Assembly (NCBI GenBank): GCA_965204295.1
Contig: OZ241973.1
Location: 3,437,940 to 3,501,939 of the forward strand
DNA from: Rhizobiaceae bacterium
Lineage (GTDB): Bacteria; Pseudomonadota; Alphaproteobacteria; Rhizobiales; Rhizobiaceae
DNA: 64,000 nucleotides
Direction of reading: 5' to 3'
Each line of letters begins with the position of its first letter. Within the stretch, counting starts at the first letter, position 1. Shown in pieces: positions 5,288 to 41,554 of the stretch. Made by a program: the position numbers and the translations under genes. The notes under the pieces were generated by a model that saw only the letters and a program-made list of their open reading frames with translations, was not told the DNA's origin and ran no database searches.

Positions 5288-5851
5288 TCAACGACCGCGT
5301 TTCAGTTCGGCCAGTTTCGCAAAGGGCGACTGTTTTTCGTCGCCGGTCACACCCGGGTCGCCGAAGGCAAGCACGGCATCGTCACTTCGCGGATATGGCT
5401 CGATCGCAAGGGCGAAAAATTCTTCCGCGATCGCGCCCACATCGATCTTCCCGTGACGAAACGTCTCCGGGTCGTTCTCGGAGTCGGGATCGAAAATCAC
5501 TTCCCCGGCAATCGGTTCCGGCTTCGCGGGCGCGTTATGCTCCGGAAGGAGCATGAGGTCGATTTCTTCCTCAATCACCGAGCCAATCGGTTCCAGCGTC
5601 ACCACACATTGCTGGGTGATTTGCGCCCTGACACGCCCCCGCACTCTTGCGCCGGCTCGTTTCCGGGGAACTACCGACAGGCGCGCTTCAAGAAAGCCGA
5701 CATTGTAAAGCCCGTGGTCGCGAGCGAGCGCATCGCATTGCGACCTGTCCGCGTCGATCGCCACGTTCAAATCATCCTTCGGCAGGGCGCCTGCCCGGAT
5801 TACCCGGGAAATCGGGCTCCTCCGTCCGGTCAAATTCGTTTCATCGGTCAT
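5288..5851 (-). CDS. YceD/DUF177 family protein
   Basis: 187-aa acidic protein upstream of plsX, with an ITQQCVVTLEP-type core typical of DUF177. Confidence 0.7.
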   Translation of the reverse strand: MTDETNLTGRRSPISRVIRAGALPKDDLNVAIDADRSQCDALARDHGLYNVGFLEARLSVVPRKRAGARVRGRVRAQITQQCVVTLEPIGSVIEEEIDLMLLPEHNAPAKPEPIAGEVIFDPDSENDPETFRHGKIDVGAIAEEFFALAIEPYPRSDDAVLAFGDPGVTGDEKQSPFAKLAELKRGR

Positions 5852-6396
5852 GCGCCGCCATCTGCGTGAGCGCCAAACGAAACGCGACCGGCGAGAATTT
5901 CGCCGATATCGTTCCGGGACATCGCATCGTACAGACGAAACACCTGCTCCGCCAGCCCGTCGGCATGCGGCCAGTCCACATCGCCGGGCCGGATGTTTCG
6001 CGCCAGCGCTTCGGCGAGCGCCCGCAGATCTCCTTCATCCAGCGCCCGGCCATAGGACGAAGCCCGGCCATAGAACATTTTTGCAAGTTTCTTCATGCGT
6101 TTCGGTATGCCTATATCGCCGACCCCGAGTTCCCGCAACGAATGATCAATGTCCTTAAAGAACATGTCGGTGACGTCCCGCGCCAGTTCCGCGGCGCTGC
6201 CTGTCTCGTTTTTCAGCCGATGGAGAAAGAGAAACATGTGAAGCGAAAGCATTTCGTAGCGACCCAGCGGCGTATCCGGCACGTCCAGATCGGCGAAGTA
6301 TCGCGGTTGCCGCGCGGCTGCCACGATTTCGGCGTAAAGTGCATCGGCGATAGCCCTATTGGCCCGCTTCGCCGAGCCGAACAGTCGCTTGAACAT
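5848..6396 (-). CDS. Ubiquinol-cytochrome c chaperone family protein
   Basis: Family-like sequence (ALYAEIVAAARQPRYF...LGRYEMLSLHMFLFLHRL). Its stop overlaps the yceD start by 4 nt. Confidence 0.7.
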   Translation of the reverse strand: MFKRLFGSAKRANRAIADALYAEIVAAARQPRYFADLDVPDTPLGRYEMLSLHMFLFLHRLKNETGSAAELARDVTDMFFKDIDHSLRELGVGDIGIPKRMKKLAKMFYGRASSYGRALDEGDLRALAEALARNIRPGDVDWPHADGLAEQVFRLYDAMSRNDIGEILAGRVSFGAHADGGA

Positions 6397-6538
6397 CGGT
6401 TTCCGTCTCCCCTAACGGCGATTGGACGACCCGGTTCGCCGTAAGAACATCGAGGTTCGGGTTGCATCGGCGGTGAAGCTGGTTTACCGAGTTTTCCGCC
6501 GGTGCATGCGGCGGCCCTTTTGAACCTGTCTGAAGAAC

Positions 6539-7036
6539 ATGTTGGCAAATCGCAAGTCCGTATTCGATGTGGCCCGTTCAGCGCCGGTGGTTCTGGCGAT
6601 GATCGGCATTGCGTTGTCCGGTTGCAATGGCACGGAAATGCTGAATCCGACGACGACGCTGACCCAGGGCTACATCGTGGATCAGGAGGCCCTGGATCTG
6701 GTTCCGGTCGGATCGAGCCGCGAACAGGTGCTGCTGGCGCTTGGAACGCCGACGACGACGGCGACTTTTGACAATAAGGCATTTTACTACATCTCGCAAA
6801 GGCGGGTAAAAAGGGCCGCGTTCATGACGGCGGAAATCGTCGATCGGCGCATTTTCGCGGTTTATTTCGGTGAGGACGAGCGCGTTGCGAATATCGCTCA
6901 GTACGGCCTTCAGGATGGCAGAGTTTTCGATTTCATCTCGAAGACCACGCCGACCGGCGGCACGCGCGACAGTTTCATCGGACAGTTGCTGTCCGGTCTG
7001 AGCAGCGGCCAGGCGCCGACGTTGGGCCGACCCTGA
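6539..7036 (+). CDS. bamE: Outer membrane protein assembly factor BamE (SmpA/OmlA lipoprotein)
   Basis: Lipobox ALSGC after a signal peptide. SmpA/OmlA core (GYIVDQEALDLVPVGSSREQVLLALGTP). Confidence 0.75.
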   Translation: MLANRKSVFDVARSAPVVLAMIGIALSGCNGTEMLNPTTTLTQGYIVDQEALDLVPVGSSREQVLLALGTPTTTATFDNKAFYYISQRRVKRAAFMTAEIVDRRIFAVYFGEDERVANIAQYGLQDGRVFDFISKTTPTGGTRDSFIGQLLSGLSSGQAPTLGRP

Positions 7037-7061
7037 ACCCGCAGGCCCAAACCGTGTCGTG

Positions 7062-7098
7062 AAAAAACCCGCGGAGATCGCTCTTCGCGGGTTTTGTT
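7062..7098. terminator. Bidirectional rho-independent terminator between bamE and hppA
   Basis: AAAAAACCCGCG-(12 nt)-CGCGGGTTTTGTT is a GC stem flanked by an A-run on one side and a T-run on the other. It sits between two convergent genes. Confidence 0.55.
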
Positions 7099-7116
7099 CG
7101 AGCGAATCGGGCCGCG

Positions 7117-9255
7117 TCAGTGCGCCAGGACGGCCAGCAGCAGCAGCGCCACGATGTTGGTGATCTTGATCATCGGATTGACCGCCGGGCCGGCCGTGTC
7201 CTTGTAGGGGTCGCCCACCGTGTCGCCGGTGACCGACGCTTTGTGGGCTTCCGAACCCTTTTCGTGTCTTGCGCCGTCCTTGTCGATGAAGCCGTCTTCA
7301 AACGACTTCTTGGCGTTGTCCCAGGCGCCGCCGCCCGCCGTCATCGAAATGGCGACGAACAGACCCGTGACGATCACGCCGAGCAGCATCGCGCCGACGG
7401 CGGCAAGCGCGTCGTTCTTGTCCGCGATCGCGTAGATCAACCCGAAGACCACAATCGGCGAAAGCACCGGCAGCAGCGAAGGAACAATCATCTCCCTGAT
7501 CGCGGCGCGGGTCAGCATATCCACGGCGCGGCCATAATCGGGTTTTTCCTTGCCTTCCATGATGCCGGGTTTCTCGCGGAATTGCCTGCGTACTTCCTCA
7601 ACCACCGCGCCACCGGCGCGACCGACGGCGGTCATCGATATGCCGCCGAACAGGTAGGGCAACAGGCCGCCGAACAGCAGTCCGACGACCACATATGGAT
7701 TGGAAAGCGAGAAGTCGACCGATACGCCTTCAAAGAAGGATCCCGGCGCCGCGTTGGCCGCGAAGAATTTCAGGTCTTCGGTGTAGGCGGCGAACAGCAC
7801 CAGCGCGCCGAGGCCGGCCGATCCGATGGCATAACCCTTGGTGACGGCCTTCGTGGTGTTGCCGACCGCATCAAGCGCATCGGTTGACTTGCGGACCTCC
7901 GGATCAAGCCCCGCCATCTCGGCGATGCCGCCGGCGTTGTCCGTTACCGGGCCGAACGCATCGAGCGCGACGACCATGCCGGCCAGCGCCAGCATGGTGG
8001 TGACGGCAATCGCAATCCCGAACAATCCGGCCAGATTGAAGGTCGCGATGATGCCGGCGATGATCACGATTGCAGGCAATGCCGTGGCCTCAAGCGAAAC
8101 GGCCAGACCTTGAATGACGTTGGTGCCATGGCCGGTGACCGACGCCTGCGCGATGGAAACCACCGGGCGCTTGCCCGTGCCGGTGTAGTATTCCGTGATC
8201 CAGATAATCAGACCGGTGACCGCAAGGCCGATCAGTCCGCAATAGAACAAATAACGTCCGGTGAAGGAAGCGCCGTTCGATGCCGTGAAATCGGTTCCGG
8301 CGCCGAGCCAGCCCCACACGATCACGGCGAGCGCGACGGCCGACAGCGCCGCCGTCGCCCAAAAACCCTTGTAAAGGGCGCCCATGATCGAATTGTCGGA
8401 TCCGAGCTTGACGAAAAACGTGCCGATGATCGACGTGACCACGCACGATGCGCCGATGACCAGCGGAAACAGCATCAACATTTGCGCCGTAGCGCCATCG
8501 AAGAAGATCGACGCCAGCACCATCGTCGCGACGATCGTCACCGCATAGGTTTCGAACAGGTCCGCGGCCATTCCGGCGCAGTCGCCGACATTGTCGCCGA
8601 CATTGTCCGCAATGGTCGCCGGATTGCGTGGATCGTCTTCCGGAATGCCGGCTTCCACCTTGCCGACGAGATCGCCGCCGACGTCGGCGCCCTTGGTGAA
8701 GATACCGCCGCCAAGGCGGGCGAAAATCGAGATCAGCGACGCGCCGAAGCCAAGAGCCACCATGGCGTCGATGACGTTGCGGCTTTCCGGATCAAGGCTC
8801 ATCGGCCCGATCAGGATGCAGTAGTAGCCGGCGACGCCCAGCAGCGCCAGGCCGGCCACCAACAGTCCGGTGATCGCGCCTGACTTGAAGGCGATATCGA
8901 GACCGCCGGCAAGCGAATCGGACGCCGCCTGCGCGGTGCGGACATTGGCGCGCACGGAAATATGCATGCCGATGTACCCCGCCGCGCCGGACAGAACGGC
9001 GCCGATCAGAAAGCCGATCGCGGCGATACCGGACAACAGCCACCAGGCAATCAGGCACACCACGACGCCGACAATGGCGATCGTCGTATACTGACGGTTC
9101 AGATATGCCTGCGCACCCTCGCGGATATAGCCCGCGATTTCCTGCATTCGGGCGTTGCCCTGATCGGCCGCGAGAACCGACTGTGTCGCCCAGATGGCGT
9201 AAAGCACGGACAGCAAGCCGCAGGCGATGACGACAAAAAGCATGGTCATTGCCAT
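7117..9255 (-). CDS. hppA: Membrane-bound proton-translocating pyrophosphatase
   Basis: 712-aa polytopic protein with H+-PPase signatures ([47 protein letters not shown]). Confidence 0.95.
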
Positions 9256-9441
9256 ATTCCTTGGTTTGATTGATCCGGATGGTCCCCATGCCGGACAGGT
9301 CTGACATCTGCCGGATCACGCCGGGCAAAAAGGCGGCGTCACGGCCATCGCTGCGGCTTATGCGCATGCCACCCGCCAAGGTCAAGGCTTTGTTGCGAAT
9401 TGCAACGAATTGCCAGTCTCATTGGCGAATTCGGGCCGGCA

Positions 9442-10653
9442 TCAGGTGGAAATCGCCGATTTCGGGGTCCGGAACGACAGAATCGCCAATGCGGCCAGGC
9501 AGAGGAGCGTAACCGGAAACACGATCCAGTTGAGCATATCCCACCCCCAGGCGTTATAGACCTGACCGGACATCAGCGACGCGAAGGCGACCAGCCCGAA
9601 AAGCAGAAAGTCATGGAATCCCTGAACCTTGTTCTTTTCGGATGGACGATAGCATTCGGTAACGATCGCGGTTGAGCCGATGAATCCGAAATTCCAGCCG
9701 ATCCCGAGCAGGACAAGCGCGGTCCAGAACTGCCATAGAGCGATGCCCGACAACGCCACGATTGCACAGGCGATCAAAAGGAAAAGGCCGGTCGCGATGA
9801 TTTTCTCCTTGCCGAACCGCGCGATGAGGCCGCCGGTAAAGAAGCTCGGCGCAAACATCGCCATGACGTGCCAGGAAATACCGAGCGTCGCTTCATCCGG
9901 CGTAAAACCGCATCCGACCATGGCCAGAGGCGCACCGGTCATGACGAAAACCATCAGCGTGTATGAACCGACCGCGCAGATCAGCGCGGCGGCAAAACGC
10001 GGTCGGCGAATGATTTCGACAAGCCGCCGGGCGGGCTCTCCCGTCGCCGTATCGCGGGAACCCGATTCCCTGGGCATTCCGAGAAACGACAGGATCAACG
10101 CGCCGATGGCCGCCAATCCGATCACGGCCGCGAAGGAGCCGGCAAACATGATCGGCGCGAACAGTTCGCGTGTGAAGATTACCGTCTGCGGTCCGATGAT
10201 GGCCGCGAAGACGCCACCGCCGAGAACCCAGGAAATGGCCTTGGGTTTGAAGGAGACCGGCGCATTGTCGGCGGCCGCGAAGCGATATTGCTGGACGAAA
10301 GAGTTTCCGCTGCCGATGAACAACAATCCGAGGGCGAAAAGCCAGAAGCTGTGATTGAAAAGCGCGATGGTCGCCACCGCGCCGCCAAGCGCCGTCACGC
10401 CGGCGCCGGACACGAACCCATACCGCCTGCCGACCCATCTCATCAGAGCGGCGGCCGGCAATGCGCCGAGCGCCGTGCCGATATTGAAGCCGGTTACAGG
10501 CGCTGTCGCCAGCGATTTGTCGGCGCCGAGCAGATAAAATCCCGCCAATCCGCCCATTGCAATCGATATGGGCGCCGCCGATCCGACAATGGCCTGGCTT
10601 GCGGACAGGATTAACGCCGTCCGGCGGGCTTCACTCCCGGGAACGGCGCTCAC
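9442..10653 (-). CDS. MFS transporter
   Basis: 403 aa, about 12 predicted TM helices, MFS-like loop (GRRYG). Confidence 0.75.
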
Positions 10654-29434: not shown

Positions 29435-30595
29435 ATGGAATTGATCAGCACGACGACCGCGCTCCGGGACGCGGTATCCGAACTTTCCAGGTCCGAATTC
29501 ATTACCGTCGACACCGAGTTCATCCGTGAAACGACATTCTGGCCGGAGTTGTGCCTGATCCAGATGGCGGCGCCGGGAACCGAAGCGATGGTCGACGCGC
29601 TGGCGCCGGGCCTCGACCTGGAACCGTTTTTCGGCCTGATGGGCGACGAGGCGGTGGTCAAGGTGTTTCACGCCGCGCGCCAGGACATCGAGATCGTTTT
29701 TCATCGCGGCGGCCTGATTCCGCATCCGGTGTTCGATACGCAGGTCGCGGCCATGGTTTGCGGATTCGGCGACAGCGTCTCCTACGATCAGCTTGTCCAG
29801 AGAATTACCGGCAATTCGATTGACAAGTCATCCCGCTTCACCGATTGGCGCCGCCGCCCGTTGTCGCAGAAACAACTGGCCTATGCGCTCGCCGACGTGA
29901 CATATCTCATCGACGTCTACCGCCGCCTCGAAGCCGAATTGCGGCGCGAGAACCGCGCGCATTGGCTGGAGGACGAGATGGAGGCGCTTACGGCGCGCGA
30001 AACCTACGACATCCGTCCGGAAGAAGCCTGGAACCGGCTCAGGAAACGATTGAGAAAGCCGGCGGAACTGGCCGTCATGCGATCCGTCGCCGCCTGGCGC
30101 GAGCGGGAGGCGCGGTCCCGGAACGTACCGCGCGGGCGCGTGTTGAAGGACGACGCGATTTACGAGATCGCGCAACAACAACCGACGGACCCGGAAAAAC
30201 TGAGCCGGCTGAGAACCATACCGCGTGGCCGGAAACGTTCGGGCGACGTCGCCGGCCTGCTGAAGGCGGTCAACGACGCGCTCGCGCTGCCGCGCGACCG
30301 GATGCCGAGCCCGCTCAAGCCGAAACGCCCGCCAAACGGCGCCGCCGCGGCGGCGGAACTCCTGAAAGTGTTATTGCGGATGACGTCGGAGGATTCGGGC
30401 GTAGCGGCCAGGGTTCTCGCCTCCGGCGACGATATCGACAAACTGGCCGCCGAGGGCGAAAAGGCCGACATTCCGGCGCTGAACGGCTGGCGTCGCGAAG
30501 TGTTCGGCGATCCCGCGCTAAAACTGATCCGTGGCGAGACCGCGCTTCGCTACAGGAACGGCAAGGTGGCGACGGAGGAATGCCGGCCGGGATGA
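29435..30595 (+). CDS. rnd: Ribonuclease D
   Basis: DEDD 3'-5' exonuclease motifs (ITVDTEF, FHAARQDIE, YALADVTYL) followed by an HRDC region. Confidence 0.9.
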   Translation: MELISTTTALRDAVSELSRSEFITVDTEFIRETTFWPELCLIQMAAPGTEAMVDALAPGLDLEPFFGLMGDEAVVKVFHAARQDIEIVFHRGGLIPHPVFDTQVAAMVCGFGDSVSYDQLVQRITGNSIDKSSRFTDWRRRPLSQKQLAYALADVTYLIDVYRRLEAELRRENRAHWLEDEMEALTARETYDIRPEEAWNRLRKRLRKPAELAVMRSVAAWREREARSRNVPRGRVLKDDAIYEIAQQQPTDPEKLSRLRTIPRGRKRSGDVAGLLKAVNDALALPRDRMPSPLKPKRPPNGAAAAAELLKVLLRMTSEDSGVAARVLASGDDIDKLAAEGEKADIPALNGWRREVFGDPALKLIRGETALRYRNGKVATEECRPG

Positions 30596-30629
30596 CCCCC
30601 CGCCGGCCCGGTGCGCCATGCGTATCGCC

Positions 30630-31601
30630 TCAGGCGGCTTTGCGCCGGGGCATGTAGGAGGGCGGTGCGATGCCGAGCGCCTCGCGAAGGTCGGGCGGAA
30701 CGAGCCGGTGCGCCGATATGCGCGCAAACGGCATTTCCGCGATCAGACGGTCGGCCCCGGCGATTTCGAGATATTCGTCGTAATTGTCGAAGCCGGACCG
30801 GCCGACATAATCGATAAAGCTCTCCGCGGGAACGCCGTTGGCGACGACGCACTCGTGGTTCTCAAGCTCCACATGCCACCAGACGAATTTCGTCGGCATG
30901 TCCGAAAGCGGCAGGAAGCGGATTGGTGTTCCGTCCTCCGCCAGCGTGCCGGCGTTGATCAGCATATCGCCGAACAGCAGGGCGTGATCGGCGGTCACGG
31001 TCAGCGGTCTGTTCGGCAGGTCCGGGCCGAGGGCGCCGGCGTCGATGCGCACGGGCTTGCGTCCGAGTTCGACGCCGCGCGGGTTGGCGACGGTCTGCCG
31101 CGCCACCCAGATCGCCGGCGTCGACCTGCCGTCATGGGTCACGACCCGGTCGCCGGGTTTCAGGGTTTCGATGGCCTTTTCGCCGTCCGGCGTGGCGATC
31201 CTCGTTCCGGTCGCGAAGCAGTTGAAGACCTGCGCCCCGTTTCCCGTGTAGACCGACGTGAAGCCCCCTGCCGTCAGGGGCGCGAGGTTTGCGTCCGCCA
31301 GGTTGTAGGGGATGTAATATTGTGCTTCTCCGCCGCCGAACTGCCTGCCGCCGCCGCCGGACTGCCTGCCGAAAATGGCGTAGGTCTCGCCTTCGAATCC
31401 GATCGTGTACCCCGTGAAGACGTTCTCGCGCGCCAAGAACGAGTCCGCGCCGACATCCAGGAGGCCGTCATCTCCGGAATTGACCATGCCCGATGATTGT
31501 TGCCGGATGGAGGCGGAAGTCCACGAGATGCTCCCGCCCGGCTGGTTGACGACATCCATGCCGGGTAGGCTTATAAAAATGTAATGAGAAAATGTAGCCA
31601 C
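30630..31601 (-). CDS. Hint (Hedgehog/intein-like, bacterial intein-like) domain protein, paralog 1
   Basis: A 127-aa divergent N-module, then N|CFATGT...TADH...VANGVPAESF, which matches the Cys1 and TxxH blocks of Hint/BIL domains. GTG start with an AAGGAGA SD. Confidence 0.8.
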   Translation of the reverse strand: MATFSHYIFISLPGMDVVNQPGGSISWTSASIRQQSSGMVNSGDDGLLDVGADSFLARENVFTGYTIGFEGETYAIFGRQSGGGGRQFGGGEAQYYIPYNLADANLAPLTAGGFTSVYTGNGAQVFNCFATGTRIATPDGEKAIETLKPGDRVVTHDGRSTPAIWVARQTVANPRGVELGRKPVRIDAGALGPDLPNRPLTVTADHALLFGDMLINAGTLAEDGTPIRFLPLSDMPTKFVWWHVELENHECVVANGVPAESFIDYVGRSGFDNYDEYLEIAGADRLIAEMPFARISAHRLVPPDLREALGIAPPSYMPRRKAA

Positions 31602-31739
31602 GGGCCGTCTCCTTTCAGTCCCGGGGAGCGACCCGGCGGAAACCCGCGAGGCAAACGCCCCGGTCAGATGCCGGTTGCCCGACAGTCCGTCTTCACACCC
31701 ATGCCGCCGATTTGGGAAACGGGCGCGTCATACTTCAAT

Positions 31740-31775
31740 GGCGACGCACCGCTTGATGACGACGCCCCGCTTGAT
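31740..31775. repeat. Two-unit 18-bp tandem repeat in the 5' leader of Hint paralog 1
   Basis: ggcgacgcaccgcttgat / gacgacgccccgcttgat. Same family as the long arrays upstream of paralogs 2 and 3. Confidence 0.8.
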
Positions 31776-31779
31776 GGGC

Positions 31780-31807
31780 ATTGTACGGCCCCGACACGGA
31801 CCGTCAA
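31780..31807 (-). promoter_or_regulatory. Predicted sigma70-type promoter of Hint paralog 1
   Basis: Gene-sense strand reads TTGACG-16 nt-TACAAT. The same architecture is conserved upstream of all paralogs. The repeat begins 4-5 nt after the -10 box. Confidence 0.5.
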
Positions 31808-31872
31808 GGGGCCCTTCCGCACCCGGACGCCGGCGCGAGAAAAGAGCGCGCGCCCGCCGCGTCACGCCATGC

Positions 31873-31980
31873 GCCGGTCTTCAAACGCCTTTCAAACGCC
31901 CTTCGAAACGGTTTTGAGGGGCCTTCGGGCGAAAACGCCGGACAGCGCCCTTGAGGGAGCGCCGCCGCCGTCTCCTTGCG
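31873..31980. repeat. Conserved ~110-nt 3' element of the Hint unit (copy downstream of paralog 2)
   Basis: Near-identical to 33483..33592 and similar to 41443..41554 (tcttcaaacgcctttcaaacgcccttcgaaacgg...gaggggccttcgggcgaaaacgcc...). Confidence 0.8.
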
Positions 31981-32946
31981 TCAGGCGGCGGTTTTCCGGG
32001 GGGCGGCGATAAGAGGCCGCCGGGCGATGGCCGGCAATCCCCGCAACCCGTTCGCCGGCAACAGACGCCGCGCCGATATGCGCGCAAACGGCATTTCCTT
32101 AATCAGACGGTCCGCGCCCACAAGGTCGAGATACTCGTCGTAATTGTCGAAGCCGGACCGGCCGACATAATCGATAAAGCTTTCCGCGGGAACGCCGCCA
32201 TTGGCCAGAACGACCTCGTGGTTCTCAAGCTCCACATGCCACCAGGTGAATTTCGTCGGCATGTCCTCAAGCGGCAGGAAGCGGACCGGGGTTCCGTCCT
32301 CCGCCAGCGTGCCGGCGTTGACCAGCATGTCGCCGAACAGCAGGGCGTGGTCGGCGGTCACGGTCAGCGGTCTGTTCGGCAGGTTCGGGCCGAGCGCGCC
32401 GGCGTCGATGCGCACGGGCTTTCGTCCGAGTTCGACGCCGCGCGGGTTGGCGACGGTCTGCCTCGCCACCCAGATCGCCGGCGTCGACCTGCCGTCATGG
32501 GTCACGACCCGGTCGCCGGGTTGCAGCGTTTCGATGGCCTTTTCGCCGTCAGGCGTCAGAATCGTCGTTCCGGTGGCGAAGCAGTTGGAGACATCGGCTC
32601 CGGTGGGGATGTAACCCGTCGAACTGCCCCTAACCAAGGGCGCGAGGTCATGCTGCGCCGCGTTGTAGGGGATGAAATAAGTGTCCGGTTCGACGGTGCC
32701 CGTACTACCGAAAATGGCGTAGGTCCGGCCTTCGTATTCGACCACGTACCCCGTGTAGACGATGGGTGGGCTTACTCTTCCTAACTGGTCGACGTTTCGA
32801 TCCAGAAGCCCATCGGGTCCGGAATCGACACTGGATGGTAAATTAACGGCGGCGCCATTACTCCACGAGATTGAACCGTCCGGCCCGCCGGGGGTTACGT
32901 GCACGTTAGTTAACCGGATGACATGAGTGAATGATACATCAGCCAC
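31981..32946 (-). CDS. Hint/BIL domain protein, paralog 2
   Basis: The Hint module is over 90 percent identical by eye to paralogs 1 and 3, while the N-module is divergent. The start is set to the GTG (ADVSFTHVI) that aligns with the paralog starts. An in-frame upstream ATG at 33066 is an alternative. Confidence 0.7.
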   Translation of the reverse strand: MADVSFTHVIRLTNVHVTPGGPDGSISWSNGAAVNLPSSVDSGPDGLLDRNVDQLGRVSPPIVYTGYVVEYEGRTYAIFGSTGTVEPDTYFIPYNAAQHDLAPLVRGSSTGYIPTGADVSNCFATGTTILTPDGEKAIETLQPGDRVVTHDGRSTPAIWVARQTVANPRGVELGRKPVRIDAGALGPNLPNRPLTVTADHALLFGDMLVNAGTLAEDGTPVRFLPLEDMPTKFTWWHVELENHEVVLANGGVPAESFIDYVGRSGFDNYDEYLDLVGADRLIKEMPFARISARRLLPANGLRGLPAIARRPLIAAPRKTAA

Positions 32947-33074
32947 GAATAATCTCAACGGGGAACGCACCGGCGGAAAACCGCGGGCAGACGTTCCGGT
33001 CAGATGCCGGTTGCCCGACGGCCTGTCCTCACACCCATGCCACCGATAAGGAAACGGGCGCGTCATACTTCATT

Positions 33075-33378
33075 GGCGACGCACCGCTTGGGCGACGCAC
33101 CGCTTGGGCGACGCACCGCTTGGGCGACGCACCGCTTGGGCGACGCACCGCTTGGGCGACGCACCGCTTGGGCGACGCACCGCTTGGGCGACGCACCGCT
33201 TGGGCGACGCACCGCTTGGGCGACGCACCGCTTGGGCGACGCACCGCTTGGGCGACGCACCGCTTGGGCGACGCACCGCTTGGGCGACGCACCGCTTGGG
33301 CGACGCACCGCTTGGGCGACGCACCGCTTGGGCGACGCACCGCTTGGGCGACGCACCGCTTGGGCGACGCACCGCTTG
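33075..33378. repeat. 19 perfect tandem copies of a 16-bp unit (GGCGACGCACCGCTTG) in the 5' leader of Hint paralog 2
   Basis: Counted directly: 304 bp = 19 x 16 with no visible substitutions. All six frames are open across it. Confidence 0.95.
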
Positions 33379-33383
33379 ATTCC

Positions 33384-33411
33384 ATTATATGGCCCCGACA
33401 CGGACGGTCAA
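33384..33411 (-). promoter_or_regulatory. Predicted sigma70-type promoter of Hint paralog 2
   Basis: Gene-sense strand reads TTGACC-16 nt-TATAAT. The repeat array begins 5 nt downstream of the -10 box. Confidence 0.55.
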
Positions 33412-33482
33412 GAGGCTTTTCCGCACCCGTCGGGACACGGCCCGGCGCGCCTTGGTCACGGATTTCGACTCCGTGATTTGAC

Positions 33483-33592
33483 GCCGGTCTTAAAGCGCCT
33501 TGCAAACGCCCTTCGAAACGCGGTTTTGAGGGGCCTTCGGGCGAAAACGCCGGACAGCGCCCTTGAGGGAGCGCCGCCGCCGTCTCCTTGCG
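33483..33592. repeat. Conserved ~110-nt 3' element of the Hint unit (copy downstream of paralog 3)
   Basis: Aligns with 31873..31980 and 41443..41554. Confidence 0.8.
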
Positions 33593-34570
33593 TCAGGCGG
33601 CGGTTTTCCGGGGGGCGGCGATAAGAGGCCGCCGGGCGATGGCCGGCAATCCCCGCAACCCGTTCGCCGGCAACAGACGCCGCGCCGATATGCGCGCAAA
33701 CGGCATTTCCTTAATCAGACGGTCGGCCCCCGCAAGGTCGAGATATTCGTCGTAATTGTCGAAACCGGACCGGCCGACATAATCGATAAAACTCTCCGCA
33801 GGAACGCCGCCATTGGCCAGAACGACCTCGTGGTTCTCAAGCTCCACATGCCACCAGATGAATTTCGTCGGCATGTCCGAAAGCGGCAGGAAGCGGATCG
33901 GGGTTCCGTCCTCCGCCAGCGTGCCGGCGTTGACCAGCATGTCGCCGAACAGCAGGGCGTGATCGCCCGTCACGGTCAGCGGTCTGTTCGGCAGGTCCGG
34001 GCCGAGGGCGCCGGCGTCGATGCGCACCGGTTTGCGGCCGAGTTCGACGCCGCGCGGGTTGGCGACGGTCTGCCGCGCCACCCAGATCACCGGCGTCGAC
34101 CTGCCGTCATGGGTCATGACCCGGTCGCCGGGTTGCAGCGTCTCGATGGCCCGCTCGCCGTCCGGCGTCAGAATCGTCGTTCCGGTGGCGAAGCAGTTGA
34201 AGACCTGGGCATTGCTGGGCTGGAAACCCGTCGAGACGCCGCCCATGAACGCCAGGGTGCCGAGGTTTTGTCCCTGCTCGGGGTCATAGGGGATGTAATA
34301 TCGCGCTCCTCCGCCGCTGAGCGGCCTGCCGAAAATGGCGTAGGTCTCGCCTTCGTATTCGACCACGTACCCCGTGTAGGTGGTGGCATCGTTTAGGAAC
34401 CAGTCGGTTCCGGCATCCAGGATGTCATCGTCTCCGGTATTGACGCTGAATCGTGGGTCCACATTGTCAGTGGCAGTAAAAACAGTCCACGAGATCGACC
34501 CGTCCGGCCCGGAGGGGAGGGGCGTCGGCGAATTAATCTCAATGTAGTTGGGGAACTCTATAACAGCCAT
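33593..34570 (-). CDS. Hint/BIL domain protein, paralog 3
   Basis: The ATG at 34570 (MAVIEFPNY) is preceded by AAGGAAA. Same N|CFATGT ... TGDH ... LANGGVPAESF architecture. Confidence 0.8.
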   Translation of the reverse strand: MAVIEFPNYIEINSPTPLPSGPDGSISWTVFTATDNVDPRFSVNTGDDDILDAGTDWFLNDATTYTGYVVEYEGETYAIFGRPLSGGGARYYIPYDPEQGQNLGTLAFMGGVSTGFQPSNAQVFNCFATGTTILTPDGERAIETLQPGDRVMTHDGRSTPVIWVARQTVANPRGVELGRKPVRIDAGALGPDLPNRPLTVTGDHALLFGDMLVNAGTLAEDGTPIRFLPLSDMPTKFIWWHVELENHEVVLANGGVPAESFIDYVGRSGFDNYDEYLDLAGADRLIKEMPFARISARRLLPANGLRGLPAIARRPLIAAPRKTAA

Positions 34571-34705
34571 GGGTAGTTTCCTTTCAATCCGGGGAACGAA
34601 CCGGCGGAAACCCGCGGGCAAACGTTCCATTAAGATGCCGGTTGCCCGACAATCCGTCTTCACACCCCTGCCACCGATCGGGACACGGGCGCGTCATACT
34701 TCAAT

Positions 34706-34894
34706 GGCGACGCCCCGCTTGAGGCGACGCACCGCTTTGAGGCGACGCACCGCTTTGAGGCGACGCACCGCTTTGAGGCGACGCACCGCTTTGAGGCGAC
34801 GCACCGCTTTGAGGCGACGCACCGCTTGGGCGACGCACCGCTTTGAGGCGACGCACCGCTTGGGCGACGCACCGCTTGGGCGACGCACCGCTTG
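34706..34894. repeat. 11-unit tandem repeat (mixed 16/17/18-bp variants of GGCGACGCACCGCTT(T)G(A)) in the 5' leader of Hint paralog 3
   Basis: Units counted by hand: one 17-mer, five 18-mers, then an alternation of 16- and 18-mers. Confidence 0.9.
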
Positions 34895-34899
34895 ACCTC

Positions 34900-34927
34900 A
34901 CTATATGGGCCCGACCCAAACCGTCAA
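34900..34927 (-). promoter_or_regulatory. Predicted sigma70-type promoter of Hint paralog 3
   Basis: Gene-sense strand reads TTGACG-16 nt-TATAGT. The repeat starts 5 nt downstream. Confidence 0.5.
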
Positions 34928-35024
34928 GGGGCCTTTTCGCAGCCGGACGCCGGCAAGGCGGGCCGCCCGTCGCGCATCTTGCGCGCCCGCAACCGCCGGC
35001 ATGTCGCGGATATGAGTCCCGGCC

Positions 35025-36539
35025 CTATTGCGGCGCGACCGCGAGCCGCAACGGCCTTTCGATCATTCTTGCAAGCTGCTCCAGCCGCCACGACGGTCTG
35101 TCGCCGTAAAGGCCGGCGAGATCGGCCGGCAGCCGCAGTTCCAGACCGCCGTCGCCAACTGCAACCCATTTCAGTCGCGGGATGACCCCGGGCATGGCCG
35201 CGGACAGCAGATATCCGACCCGCATCAAACCCGCCGCGAGTTTCGCGCGCTCGAACGATCTCGCTCCGGCGACTTCAACGAGCGCGGGCGAGACCTTCGC
35301 CGCCAGACCTTCGTGCCGGAACGCGGTGGCGAGGGCGATAAACGCCCGCCCGGGATGATCGATTCCGACAAACGAGGTGTGCGAAATCACATTGAGCGAT
35401 TGAGCGCCGCGATATTCCGGATGCGCCCGCCAGCCGATGTCGGCCAACATGCATGAGGCGCGCCGGCACCTCGCCTCGTCGGCGGTCTCGTCCACGCCGA
35501 ATTTCCCGAACGAACGCCCGGTCCAGTCAGCCATCTCCCGGGCGTGCGCGATGGACCGGGAGCGAAGCAGCGCCAGTTCCCCGGCGGCGGCGGCAAGCGG
35601 GTCCAGATCGCGCTCGACATCGTTCAGAAGCGAATACAGATAACCTTCCCGCACCCCGAGAGCCGACACTTCGATATGGGCCGGCCGCATGATCCTGATG
35701 ATTTCCTCCAGCACGATCGCGCCATAGGGCAACAGCGACCGGCGGTTCTTCGATACGCTGCCGATGCCCTTGACCGATTCGATTTCTCCCGACGACACCC
35801 GGCGCAGAAAACCGGCGATCCGAGCGGGCCTCATCGCGTAATGGTGTATGACGCCGAGAGGATAGCCGTCCGAGTTCATGTGAAGACGGGCGAGATTTCT
35901 CCATGTTCCGCCCACCGCGTAGAAGACCCGCCCCCTGCCCTTCGCGAGCCAGGACGCGCGCTTGAGTTCGGATGCCACGATCCCGCGAACCCTGCCAAGA
36001 TCCTCCCCCGCCATGTCGCGCAGGCGCAGGCCGCCGAGCGGCAGGGTGATGCCGTCGCCGATCCGCGTTCCCGATACGTCGAACAATTCCAGGCTGCCGC
36101 CGCCGAGATCGCCGCCGATCCCATCCGGCGACATGAAGCCGGAAATGACGCCCAATGCGGAATAATATGCTTCCCGGCGCCCCGACAGCACGTCGATTTC
36201 GGCGCCGAGGATTTTCTCGGCCCGCTCTATGAATTCCTGTCCGTTGACCGCCTCACGCGCGGCGGCGGTGGCGATCACATGCAGGGAGGCCGCGCCGGTT
36301 TGCGCGACCAGCGCCCGAAAACGCCTGAATTCCTCCATGGCCGCGTCGATCGCCGCCGGATCGAGCCGTCCGGTCGAATGAACGCCCCGGCCCAGACCGG
36401 CCAGCATTTTTTCATTGAAAAGAACCGTCGGAGACCTGGTCACGCCTTCATAGACGACAAGGCGAATCGAATTGGAACCGACATCGATGATTGCGACCGG
36501 TTCGCGGCCGGGCAGCCGACCCTGCGAAAAATCGTTCAT
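35025..36539 (-). CDS. ppx: Exopolyphosphatase (Ppx/GppA family)
   Basis: N-terminal ASKHA motif ([15 protein letters not shown]), 504 aa, overlaps the ppk1 stop by 4 nt. Confidence 0.9.
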
Positions 36540-38755
36540 TTCGCGGTTGAGGCGCGCATTTTTTTCGTGGGCTTCAAGCGCATGATTCGTTTCGGCGCAT
36601 GGCTCTTGAGCGCCTCGCCCCGGCCCGACAGGCTGGGATTGGTCATGAAATATTCCTGCGCATTGAACAATTCCTCCCCCCGTTCGGGCGCGATGCGCCT
36701 CGACGTGCCGTCGGGCAATAACTCGAAACTCTGGCAGTTGTCCATGATATTGCCCAGCATGATCTGGTCGAGCACCTGTTCATGCACGGTCGGATTGGTC
36801 AGCGGCGCGATCGTCTCCACGCGGCGGTCCAGATTGCGCGGCATCATGTCGGCGGAACCGATATAGACAAGCGCCTCGTCGGACGGCAGCCCATATCCGT
36901 TTCCAAAGCAATAAATGCGACTGTGCTCCAAAAATCGTCCGACGATCGACTTGACCCGAATGTTGTCGGAAAATCCCGGCGCCTGCGGGCGCAGGCAACA
37001 AATTCCGCGCACGATCAAATCGATCTCCACACCCGCCTTGCCGGCATCGTACAAGGCGTCGATGACCTGCGGATCGACAAGCGAGTTCATCTTCATCCAG
37101 ACCGCCGCCGGTTTTCCGTTTTTTGCGAACGCCTTTTCCCGCGCGATATGCTTGAGGATGCGGTCGCGCATGGTCATCGGCGAGACCGCCAGTCCCATCT
37201 TCTTGGCGGGTTCCACGTATCCGGTCACGAGATTGAAGACCTGCGCCACTTCGTGAGCCGTCTGCTGATCCGATGTGAAATAGGACAGATCGGTGTAAAT
37301 GCGGGCGGTGATCGGATGGTAGTTTCCCGTGCCGAGATGGACGTAATTCCTCAGCCTGCCCTCTTCGCGCCGCACCACCTGAGACATTTTCGCATGGGTT
37401 TTCAACTCGATGAAACCGAACACGACCTGCACGCCGGCGCGCTCCATATCGCGCGCCCAGCGTATGTTGGCCTCCTCGTCGAACCGGGCCTTCAGTTCGA
37501 TCAGCGCCGTGACCGATTTGCCCGCTTCCGCCGCGTCGATCAGCGCCCGGACGATCGGGCTGTCGTTCGATGTCCGGTAAAGCGTTTGCTTGATCGCAAC
37601 GACATCGGGATCGTTAGCCGCCTGACGCAGAAATTGAACAACCACGTCGAACGACTCGTAGGGATGGTGAACGATGATGTCCTTTTCGCGAATCGCGGCC
37701 AGGCAATCGCCCCCGTTTTCGCGAATGCGCTCGGGAAAACGGGGATTGTAGGGCGGAAATTTCAGATCGTCGCGGGGCAGCGAGACGATTTCGGATATTT
37801 GCGCCAGATCCTGCAATCCCTCGGTCACGCTCACACGGCCGGCGGAGACGTTCAATTCATGAGCGACGAATTCGCGCAATCCGGGCGGCATGCCGGAATC
37901 GAATTCGATGCGGATCACCGACCCGCGACGGCGGCGTTTCAGCGCCGACTCGAACAGGCGGACCAGATCTTCCGCTTCCTCCTCGACTTCGATATCGCTG
38001 TCCCGAATGATCCTGAACGTTCCCATTCCCTTGAGTTTGTATCCCGGGAACAGGTCGGTGACATGCATTCCGACCAGATTTTCCAGGGTGACGAACTTCG
38101 TTTGGCCGTCCCGGTCGGGCAGCCGGATGAAACGGGTCAGCGCGACCGGCAGCCGCAGAAGAGCGAACATCTGCTCCTTGCGCTTCCTGTGCATGAGTTC
38201 GAGCGCTATCGAAAATCCGAGATTGGGTATGAACGGAAACGGATGGGCGGGATCGACGGAGAGCGGGGTTAGAACCGGAAAAACGCTGTCGCGAAAATGC
38301 TCTCCCAGCCATTCGCGTTCGCTTTTATTGAGATCGGACGGTCCGGCGATATATATGGAATGCCCGGCGAGCAGTTCGAGCAACGCGGTCAGTTGCGATT
38401 GCTGATCCTTCTCCAGCCGGTCGATTTCAAGCAACACCTGCGACAGTTGCTGCTCCGGGGTTCTTCCGTCCGCCGATTTCAGCGCGATGCCTTCGCGCAC
38501 CTGACCGTCGAGCCCGGCGACGCGAACCATGAAGAACTCATCCAGATTGGCCGCCGATATCGACAGGAAACGCAGACGTTCTAGCAGCGGATGATTGTCG
38601 TTCCGGCTTTCCGCGAGCACGCGGCGATTGAATTGAAGCCATGAAAATTCGCGATTGACGAAGCGCTCGGGACTTTTCGCCAGCCTTGCGGCGTCCATCG
38701 CGGGCGACGACGCGAAATCCGTCGATATCGGGGTCCGTTCGTTCATGTTCCTCAT
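36536..38755 (-). CDS. ppk1: Polyphosphate kinase 1
   Basis: PPK1 signatures ([32 protein letters not shown]...GTGNYH). The exact start among Met 1/28/31 of the tracked ORF is uncertain. Confidence 0.9.
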
Positions 38756-38961
38756 TCGATCTCGATTGGACGGCTGCGTTGAAACGCCGATTCCGGTCGT
38801 TGTGCGAATCATAACCGCAATTCGCGACTTTCGCATTGATTTATGACAGGTCGCATCGTAGAGATTCCTTGCACTGGCGTATCGTTCGGGCCGGACGCTG
38901 GGAAAGAAATCCGATCCGGCGGCGCGGGAGATCGATGTAAAACCGGGGAGCGAGACAAGCT

Positions 38962-39903
38962 ATGAGAAAAATCGTGTTGCTATTGAGTGCGATCGCCTTT
39001 TTCGTTTTTGCGACGAGCCCTGGTTTTGGGACAGTATATAGATCTGGTAGTTTTGGATGTGGTGATTTTGAGGATACCGAGAGACAGTATAAAGAGCAAT
39101 TAAATGATCCTGATCCTTATGTGAGTGTGACCTTAGTTTATGCTATTTGTCTCTTATTAAAAGGTGAAGTGACTAACAATCAAGACAATGTTTCCAAGGG
39201 AATGTTGATATTACATGGTTTAGCTGATCAACACAGCAATATTGTAGCTAATTATTGGATAGCAGAATACCATCTTTCAGGAGGGGATTTCAAAGGTATA
39301 GCTGATAGAAATTTGGATTTAGCCGCCCATTACTATTCAAGCACACTGGCTATCATAAAGACTTATAATATCTACCCTCCTCTTGATTACTTTATGTGGG
39401 AGGCAACTGATAACATAGAGATGACATCTTATTATCAATTACCTCTTGTTTATTTAGCCATGTTTTATAAAGGGGTTTCTGGTGACTACCGTGTTAGGTT
39501 ACTTAACTCTCCCAGTTATGAAGGAGATCGTGACTTAGAAACTTATCCTGAATACAGAGATAATATTATGGGTTATATTAACTTAGCAATAGAGCATGCG
39601 GGGAATTGTAAAAACCTTCCTCTCAAGAGACATTTTGATAAATCTTCTTCTCCTTATTATATAAAAGTTTGTGCTATGTATGAGGAGAAAGCCAAGCTTT
39701 TAAAATCAGCTTATATGAAAAGTCAGCTTATTTTAAATCAGAACAACTGTAAGGATATAGGATCTGATGAAACAGTTTTTGCCTATTGTCCTGAAAATGA
39801 TGAGGCAATACAAAAAGTTGTCGATACTTATGACTCTATATTTGTAGAAATTAAGGAAATACTCTACCCTATTCGTGACACTCTTGTATCGAATCAAAAA
39901 TAA
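38962..39903 (+). CDS. Hypothetical secreted protein encoded in a gene-sized AT-rich patch (possible weak Sel1/TPR-like repeats)
   Basis: Clean 313-aa ORF with an N-terminal signal peptide (MRKIVLLLSAIAFFVFATSPGFG). Codon usage is A/T-ending, unlike every neighbouring gene. Confidence 0.7.
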   Translation: MRKIVLLLSAIAFFVFATSPGFGTVYRSGSFGCGDFEDTERQYKEQLNDPDPYVSVTLVYAICLLLKGEVTNNQDNVSKGMLILHGLADQHSNIVANYWIAEYHLSGGDFKGIADRNLDLAAHYYSSTLAIIKTYNIYPPLDYFMWEATDNIEMTSYYQLPLVYLAMFYKGVSGDYRVRLLNSPSYEGDRDLETYPEYRDNIMGYINLAIEHAGNCKNLPLKRHFDKSSSPYYIKVCAMYEEKAKLLKSAYMKSQLILNQNNCKDIGSDETVFAYCPENDEAIQKVVDTYDSIFVEIKEILYPIRDTLVSNQK

Positions 39904-41442: not shown

Positions 41443-41554
41443 CATGGCACGATCTTCAAGCGCCTTTCAAACGCCCTTCAAAACGGCTGTGAGGGGCTTT
41501 CGGGAGCGCGACGAAACGCCCCCGCCGCGTCGGCTCACCCCAATGCGCATTGCG
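41443..41554. repeat. Conserved 3' element of the Hint unit (copy at the remnant)
   Basis: Aligns with 31873..31980 and 33483..33592. Confidence 0.75.

Follow-up and report, generated by a model that had tools for sequence, protein, structure and literature searches.

A hypervariable tandem array at the predicted transcription start of a Hint-domain gene in an uncultured Rhizobiaceae bacterium

Tandem arrays in three Hint cassettes

The window (the whole stretch of DNA analyzed, 64,000 nt) carries three head-to-tail cassettes on the minus strand, located downstream of ppk and ppx (Table 1). Each cassette comprises a sigma-70-like promoter, five variable bases, a tandem array, a conserved leader of ~135 nt, and a gene of ~325 aa that includes a Hint_2 domain (PF13403, E about 1e-32). 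A promoter scan returned 7 promoter-like sites, compared with 0.6 expected, and the sole promoter-like site for the paralog 3 gene lies upstream of its array. Given the position of this predicted promoter, transcripts of paralog 3 should carry the array as the beginning of their 5′ UTR.

TRF reported the paralog 3 array as a repeat of period 18 with 10.8 copies (34706-34893, score 320). When the array was parsed into units in the sense of the gene (minus strand), the −10 box TATAGT was followed by GAGGT and then by 11 head-to-tail copies of a 13-nt core, GCGGTGCGTCGCC, 10 of which are identical; the terminal core is the variant GCGGGGCGTCGCC. The successive spacers are CAA, CAA, TCAAA, CAA, five copies of TCAAA, and TCAA, where core and spacer together amount to 16 nt with CAA, 18 nt with TCAAA, and 17 nt with TCAA. 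With each spacer counted before its core, the units run 16, 16, (16, 18), (16, 18), four times 18, and 17 nt. An earlier note on this DNA had described 11 units of mixed 16-, 17-, and 18-nt length that begin 5 nt past the TATAGT −10 box, at the same place as in paralog 2. The plus-strand parse (17 + 5 × 18 + 16 + 18 + 3 × 16 = 189 nt) reproduces those lengths, and the promoter scan and unit parse agree on the placement, the −10 box of paralog 2 ending at 33384 and its array running from 33378. The difference in copy number from paralog 2 was likewise recovered (11 versus 19 units). The description of two interleaved unit variants stands only in part: interleaving is present, but the unit lengths are three, and a single duplication of a two-unit segment explains the order. 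If a 34-nt double unit was duplicated once in tandem (Table 1), the interleaved appearance of the array needs nothing more. The genes of neighboring cassettes had also been described as near-identical, which does not hold throughout, since paralog types share only ~41% identity in their N-terminal 125 aa.

Several other readings of the array were considered and rejected. It is not a CRISPR array, as its spacers are 3 to 5 nt long and recurrent, whereas unique spacers of ~25 to 40 nt would be required. A coding reading fails because the mixed unit lengths shift the frame and the array has neither an ATG nor a ribosome-binding site. The lack of both, together with internal GTG and TTG frames that shift with the unit lengths, also argues against an upstream-ORF repeat switch (a leader peptide of the pil1 type); moreover, the leader ATG (34696, gene sense) lies downstream of the array, and its frame ends differently among the paralogs, entering the gene only in paralog 2. 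A CcrM GANTC site at the array start is not a common feature, being present in paralog 2 (GAATC) but replaced by GAGGTC at paralog 3.

Homology searches provided little annotation beyond the Hint_2 domain. Neither the N-terminal 125 aa of paralog 3 nor the AT-rich secreted protein introduced below matched a family in NCBIfam or Pfam. An exact look-up of the paralog 3 protein gave no record, a metagenome scan with its N-terminal part found no relative, and a scan of named genomes returned only distant Hint proteins, in Mameliella, Roseovarius, and Thiohalocapsa. The only Rfam 15 matches in the window were two tRNAs; the array and leader matched no family, and nothing credible was found in 30500-35100 at E values up to 1.

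Two further features of the cassettes were observed. In paralog 2 (32946-33066, minus strand), the GAAAGGA ribosome-binding region is lost and the putative start is a GTG at 32946; an alternative candidate is the leader ATG at 33066, which shares the frame of the gene and gives a 361-aa reading frame. A conserved element with reiterated CTTCAAACGCC motifs lies 3′ of the Hint genes (TRF; 31879-31910, 33483-33592, and 41454-41482 in the window), and the element also occurs at an isolated remnant near tRNA-Trp.

Table 1. Features of the cassette region in window coordinates
Feature	Position	Strand	Basis
ppk	36536-38836		
ppx	35025-36539		
Predicted sigma-70-type promoter of paralog 3, TTGACG-16 nt-TATAGT	34900-34927	−	Promoter scan, 10/12 matches; genome census
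Tandem array of paralog 3, 11 units, 189 nt, begins at predicted transcription start	34706-34894	−	TRF; unit parse
34-nt double unit (16 + 18 nt) in two identical copies, as units 3-4 and units 5-6	34795-34862	−	Unit order; 3 = 5, 4 = 6
Conserved leader, ~135 nt, array to start codon	34571-34705	−	9 full-length and 12 partial genome copies
Leader segment TGACGCGCC, complement of core segment GGTGCGTCG; 3′ arm of predicted 9-bp stem with 11-nt loop	34688-34696	−	RNAalifold
Paralog 3 gene, 325 aa, Hint_2 at residues 126-263	33593-34570	−	Domain search
Promoter of paralog 2, TTGACC-16-TATAAT	33384-33411	−	
Array of paralog 2, 19 perfect 16-nt units, spacer only CAA	33075-33378	−	TRF; unit parse
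Promoter of paralog 1, TTGACG-16-TACAAT	31780-31807	−	
Degenerate two-unit array of paralog 1, GCGGGGCGTCGTC ATCAA GCGGTGCGTCGCC	31740-31770	−	Unit parse; same in every strain having the degenerate form (5 contigs)

The array core is a conserved block of a promoter module

A census of the genome (3,558,118 bases on one contig, 59.8% G+C) identified ~45 good copies of a promoter module, TTGACGG(TTT/TCC)GGGTCGGGnnnTATAnT, with 0, 1, 2, 3, 4, 11, 13, 19, or 19 cores per copy; a single core is found at a fixed position after the −10 box in ~30 promoters. All exact genome copies of the 12-nt core center, GCGGTGCGTCGC, sit a few bases downstream of the promoter module. The pattern AAGCGGTGCGTCGCC occurs 90 times in the genome at no more than one mismatch, compared with 0 to 1 occurrences of the reversed control pattern, and the core motif is therefore not a product of chance. 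The conserved block of the module is CAAGCGG(T/G)GCGTCGCC, of which the array core is an amplified version. In a conservation profile of 15 non-redundant modules, C(A/G)A-GCGG(T/G)GCGTCGCC stands out with ~1.8 bits per position, compared with 0.3 to 1.4 bits for the first five bases past the −10 box and ~0.4 bits for the 20 bases after the core. The profile thus identifies the 16-nt repeat unit with the conserved block; the first A of this block is 7 nt from the −10 box, where transcription would be expected to start. The array is best explained as the conserved 16-nt block CAAGCGGTGCGTCGCC, located at the predicted transcription start, having been amplified in tandem; the module is common to a multigene family of ~42 Hint-domain loci that is greatly expanded in this species.

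Three payload types are found behind the module: long-leader Hint genes, short-leader Hint genes, and genes for an AT-rich secreted protein (35% G+C gene, ~310 aa, 16 genome copies). The module ends sharply with the 3′ edge of the core, and each of the three is joined there to one and the same combination of promoter and core.

Individual loci depart from this arrangement in various ways. Of the AT-rich paralogs, 15/16 lie behind a promoter-plus-single-core module, and each is followed ~100 nt on by a Hint-domain fragment that is often frameshifted; the copy in the window (38962-39903, plus strand) lacks the module. Coreless modules, at genome position 467211 (minus strand) and at 8204-8550 and 11945-12311 of contig L026, read TATAAT-CGCC-ATGAYGCACCCG; here the −10 box is joined straight to CGCC-ATGA(C/T)GCACCCG by deletions that take out the 5′ arm of the predicted stem-loop described below. 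Other small tandem repeats occupy the same spot after the −10 box, namely, three copies of TGCGTCGCCATT at genome position 469769 (minus strand) and two copies of GAGGGGCGACGCCAT at 474610 (minus strand), where the core-like sequence is inverted.

In 40 related genomes, 6 of them from the same genus, the core pattern occurred at chance level only, and 0 arrays were found. The leader, with 21 copies in its own genome, gave only one marginal 24-nt match in a single one of the 40 relatives (E 6e-4), and Hint_2 had 42 matches in the genome compared with 0 to 1 in 20 relatives. Within this comparison, all three elements (motif, leader, and Hint expansion) are confined to the species. Some 20 head-to-tail Hint cassettes are clustered at 433 to 476 kb of the genome, and the expansion includes many frameshifted members.

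Array length and composition differ among sister strains

Sister strains were represented by 14 contigs (coverage 8x to 704x) of the ENA metagenome assembly ERZ25068762, which were chosen by exact copies of ppx, rnd, and a nearby HSP20 protein. The window genome and the strains appear to be metagenome-derived, and the unit orders of the arrays are assembly consensus, which may contain errors inside a repeat. The flanking ppx and MFS-rnd DNA of the 14 contigs is 99.4 to 99.96% identical to that of the window. Between the ppx stop and the rnd stop, the window and the contigs differ in length from 1277 to 4796 bp and hold one to three cassettes, with the ppx-proximal array located 123 to 136 nt past the ppx stop (+133 in most contigs).

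In total, the 15 ppx-proximal arrays of the window and the 14 contigs comprised 14 distinct alleles, with 1 to 21 units each (Table 2). The earlier note had proposed independent slippage or recombination histories for the arrays and had named identical arrays in sister strains as an outcome that would speak against it. The opposite was seen, with distinct alleles between almost identical flanks, which supports the proposal. Only two contigs, L033 and L036, share the paralog 3 gene (100% identity across its N-terminal 125 aa), which there follows arrays of 21 units (a mosaic) and 15 units (all 16-mers), respectively, compared with 11 in the window.

Table 2. Units and spacers of the ppx-proximal array in the window and 14 strain contigs
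Source	Units	Spacer types
Window	11	CAA, TCAAA, TCAA mosaic
L027	2	ACAA
L028	8	ACAA
L029	6	CAA; promoter paralog-2-type
L030	6	ACAA
L031	5	CAA
L032	2	ACAA
L033	21	CAA, TCAAAx4, TCAA, CAAx5, TCAAx9
L034	4	TCAA
L035	2	CAA
L036	15	CAA
L037	5	ACAAx3, TCAA
L039	17	ACAA
L040	1	AT-rich-type cassette
L041	2	TCAA

The array of the second cassette ranges from 1 unit (L040 and L041) to 46 units (L037), the latter being a mosaic of CAAAx9, CAA, CAAAx7, CAAx23, and TCAAx5. Copy numbers across arrays show no preferred value and no parity bias. The rnd-proximal degenerate two-unit array is identical in the window and five contigs. This constancy across strains indicates that instability goes with repeat perfection, as slippage predicts.

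Two minor observations concern the strain contigs. L037 (ctg152773, 6.59 Mb, 704x), the contig with the highest coverage, is nearly double the length of the species' other near-complete contigs and may be a chimera or a duplicated assembly. A Type ISP restriction-modification gene (N6_Mtase and Type_ISP_C, 1066 to 1068 aa) and two small genes lie between parC and HSP20 in some strains (L034-L043, locus coordinates 5400-9600); the locus is absent in L036, L039, L040, and L041 and split in L042.

Formation of arrays and exchange between cassettes

The junctions between units take at least eight forms across loci and strains, comprising CAA, CAAA, TCAA, TCAAA, ACAA, ATCAA, ATTCAA, and AATCGCCGCAA (which gives a 24-mer), with an additional TCCAA type that accompanies the core variant GCA. 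Every form can be derived from the single-copy sequence ...TCAA-core-A(A/T)TGAAG by duplicating a segment whose ends vary by no more than 3 bases, and every form contains the whole core. The presence of at least eight junction forms indicates that amplification of the block began many times independently. Site-specific recombination at a fixed junction was rejected as the source of the arrays because the unit boundaries vary by up to 3 nt on both sides between arrays.

Mixed arrays are composed of clean blocks of unit types, a pattern that fits one- or two-unit slippage combined with unequal exchange between paralogous arrays. Arrays would thus grow and shrink by replication slippage, at times by two units (compare the 34-nt duplication in the window), and unequal recombination or gene conversion between paralogous arrays would give rise to the mixed unit types. 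BLAST joints place the breakpoints of cassette deletions and fusions within the promoter-array region. In L030 and L031, the paralog 3 promoter and an array are fused to a leader and gene of the paralog 2 type; in L029, a paralog-2-type promoter occupies the paralog 3 position; and in L041, a paralog-2-type promoter with one core is joined directly to the 5′ UTR of an AT-rich gene.

Predicted RNA structure of the array and leader

As RNA, the 12-mer GCGGUGCGUCGC within the unit is self-complementary, with two kinds of G-U pair, and neighboring units are therefore predicted to form 12-bp hairpins. The predicted two-unit hairpin has 12 bp and a loop of 4 to 6 nt, with an energy of −14.6 to −14.8 kcal/mol. 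The sense strand is favored modestly over the antisense (−14.6 versus −11.5 kcal/mol), whereas with DNA parameters the two strands are equal (−7.6 versus −7.7 kcal/mol). We rejected this strand asymmetry as proof of an RNA function because the RNA bias is modest and the DNA energies are strand-neutral. The fold of the whole array is no more stable than that of shuffled sequence (z = −0.84).

A second predicted pairing connects the array to the leader. In the RNAalifold consensus of 14 long leaders, UGACGC(R)CC, located 11 nt downstream, is the pairing partner of the last core (GGUGCGUCG) (Table 1), and in the window, the single fold of this core-leader hairpin has an energy of −13.6 kcal/mol. 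The G/A variation of the arm sits opposite a U in the consensus structure, and a change from U:G to U:A retains the pair. Compensatory change was found in 1/39 predicted pairs of the leader helices; with almost none, the core-leader pairing is not proven. In the short-leader type, the core is predicted to pair with GUGACG. On these folding models, the core resembles the 5′ arm of a 5′-terminal stem-loop in the transcript, and the array would multiply this arm and add a string of hairpins.

Possible function of the array

We consider it reasonably probable, at roughly 60%, that the array is a hypervariable minisatellite that serves, through the 5′ UTR, as a heritable, stochastic expression dial for the Hint gene. 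Since the units are predicted to pair with each other and the last unit with the leader, a change in unit number would alter both the structure of the 5′ end and the length of the UTR. The altered 5′ UTR would probably change the stability of the mRNA or the yield of the downstream Hint gene, in a heritable and stochastic manner, and the locus would then be of the contingency type, analogous to the 5′-UTR repeat of Haemophilus influenzae hmw1A. All 11 arrays of at least 10 units precede reading frames of at least 302 aa, and clearly broken genes follow 2 to 8 units, a weak hint (p about 0.06 by our own count) drawn from cases that are non-independent. If unit number does set expression, the species would offer a natural allelic series, from 0 to 46 copies, for studies of mRNA 5′-end structure, and contingency-type variation would operate within environmental populations. 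Irrespective of function, the array locus is a very sensitive strain marker for the species.

The alternative that survives best, although we regard it as unlikely, is that the array is a neutral by-product. A quasi-palindromic, GC-rich core beside its complement in the leader would be a hotspot for duplication and slippage, and array length would drift with no effect on expression. Such drift would fit copy numbers that span 1 to 46 and favor neither a particular value nor a parity, the other small repeats found at the same spot (TGCGTCGCCATT x3 and GAGGGGCGACGCCAT x2), the existence of zero-core variants, the abundance of pseudogenes in the family, and an array fold that is unremarkable relative to shuffles. 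However, the core keeps both its sequence and its distance to the −10 box, with strong conservation in diverged promoters and in three downstream contexts, which argues that the repeat unit itself is not neutral sequence. In addition, a structured insert of 30 to 750 nt at the 5′ end of an mRNA is unlikely to be without effect, and amplification of the whole core has occurred independently, with at least eight junction types.

The same constancy of position can be read at the DNA level. In this case, the core, at +1 to +15, would be an operator for a family-specific regulator, and extra copies would block RNA polymerase or titrate the regulator away from the ~45 promoters. A single core recurs at one position relative to the −10 box in ~30 promoters, which belong to two unrelated families (Hint and AT-rich secreted), it forms an imperfect inverted repeat (GCGGTG/CGTCGC), and exact copies are found nowhere else in the genome, all of which an operator would explain. 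We nevertheless find this rather improbable: no candidate regulator is obvious beside the cassettes; the palindrome is interrupted by G-T mismatches, which can pair in RNA but disturb the symmetry of DNA; the unit spacing of 16 to 19 and 24 nt is out of helical phase; and the G/A variation of the 3′ arm, opposite a U, suits RNA pairing better.

A bolder proposal, to which we give long odds, is that the core acts as a family-wide address label at the 5′ end or start site of ~45 cassettes and is read by a dedicated factor. Arrays of up to 46 copies would then be decoys or amplifiers that choose which of the ~42 Hint cassettes are expressed in a particular lineage. Because the same promoter and core are joined to three payloads with a sharp 3′ edge, the core would, under this proposal, be the joint at which payloads are swapped. 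If true, a free-living bacterium would be using copy number to encode a choice among the members of a multigene family.

That the mixed 16-, 17-, and 18-nt order is merely an assembly or consensus artifact of a repeat in a many-strain metagenome is scarcely credible: although an A run of unequal length is all that separates the 17- from the 18-nt units and the sample holds at least 15 strains, the 16- and 18-nt units differ by two separate insertions (T and A), the variants lie in clean blocks rather than scattered, independent contigs at 8x to 704x share unit types in differing block orders, and the 189-nt array is far below long-read length.

Comparison with known systems

The expression dial that we favor resembles the system of H. 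influenzae hmw1A and hmw2A, in which a heptanucleotide repeat, (ATCTTTC)n, is located in the 5′ UTR and is transcribed (PMC12721329, PMC8262952). The hmw repeat forms one arm of a long hairpin that is cut by RNase III, a longer repeat lowers expression, and the repeat regions are exchanged between the paralogous loci (PMC12721329, PMC8262952). In both cases, a tandem repeat lies between the promoter and the start codon, with the 5′-UTR placement being predicted here; the repeats form RNA hairpins (likewise predicted here); paralogs exchange their repeat regions; and the genes downstream show allelic diversity. At hmw1A/hmw2A, copy number differs both within and between strains, and variation between strains is seen here. 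The differences are also considerable. The units described here measure 16 to 24 nt, against 7 nt at hmw; the predicted transcription start is also where the array begins; and the units are predicted to pair mutually and with a short leader arm, whereas hmw uses a G-rich arm and a long RNase III substrate. The predicted folds contain only local 12-bp hairpins and the 9-bp leader hairpin, with no long continuous duplex of the hmw type. Furthermore, the array belongs to a family of ~45 promoters in an uncultured environmental host. Because unit size, transcript-start position, predicted unit-unit pairing, the ~45-promoter family, and the environmental host set the array apart, we place it, on the features listed, outside the hmw type and class it as a candidate repeat-based contingency-type locus.

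Classical simple-sequence-repeat contingency loci have units of 1 to 7 nt that alter promoter spacing or the reading frame (PMC11475388, PMC2651432). The array shares with them slippage-prone perfect repeats beside genes of a variable family and copy numbers that vary from strain to strain. Unlike the classical loci, it alters neither promoter spacing nor the reading frame, because its position is past the −10 box but ahead of any start codon. To our knowledge, repeat-driven expression switching is known almost only in small-genome, host-adapted pathogens and with units of 1 to 7 nt. Here, the host is an uncultured bacterium, the units of 16 to 24 nt run from the first predicted bases of the transcript, and there are many independent origins within one expanded family.

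The module can also be compared with the putative mobile promoters reportedly described by Matus-Garcia et al. in 2012, in that a near-identical module precedes two unrelated families (Hint and AT-rich secreted). Unlike those promoters, the module travels with a cassette family in one species and gives no sign of autonomous movement, and the amplified part is the block predicted to be transcribed, not the promoter. With respect to the transcript, the ompA 5′ UTR is said to carry a 5′-terminal stem-loop that stabilizes the mRNA (Emory, Bouvet and Belasco, 1992). The likeness is one of prediction only, as the hairpin here is predicted to begin 2 to 4 nt from the 5′ end of the transcript. We know of no mRNA stabilizer of this kind in which the 5′ stem-loop is tandemly amplified.

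Searches of the literature found no description of a hypervariable repeat at the transcript starts of Hint or BIL genes. Hint/BIL domains occur in hypervariable bacterial proteins and are linked to rearrangements, according to Amitai et al. (2003) as summarized in PMC7765530. That literature concerns proteins, whereas the hypervariable repeat described here is located at a predicted transcript start. The cassette genes nevertheless resemble BIL/Hint proteins in having Hint_2 after a variable N-terminal module and in belonging to a rearranging family.
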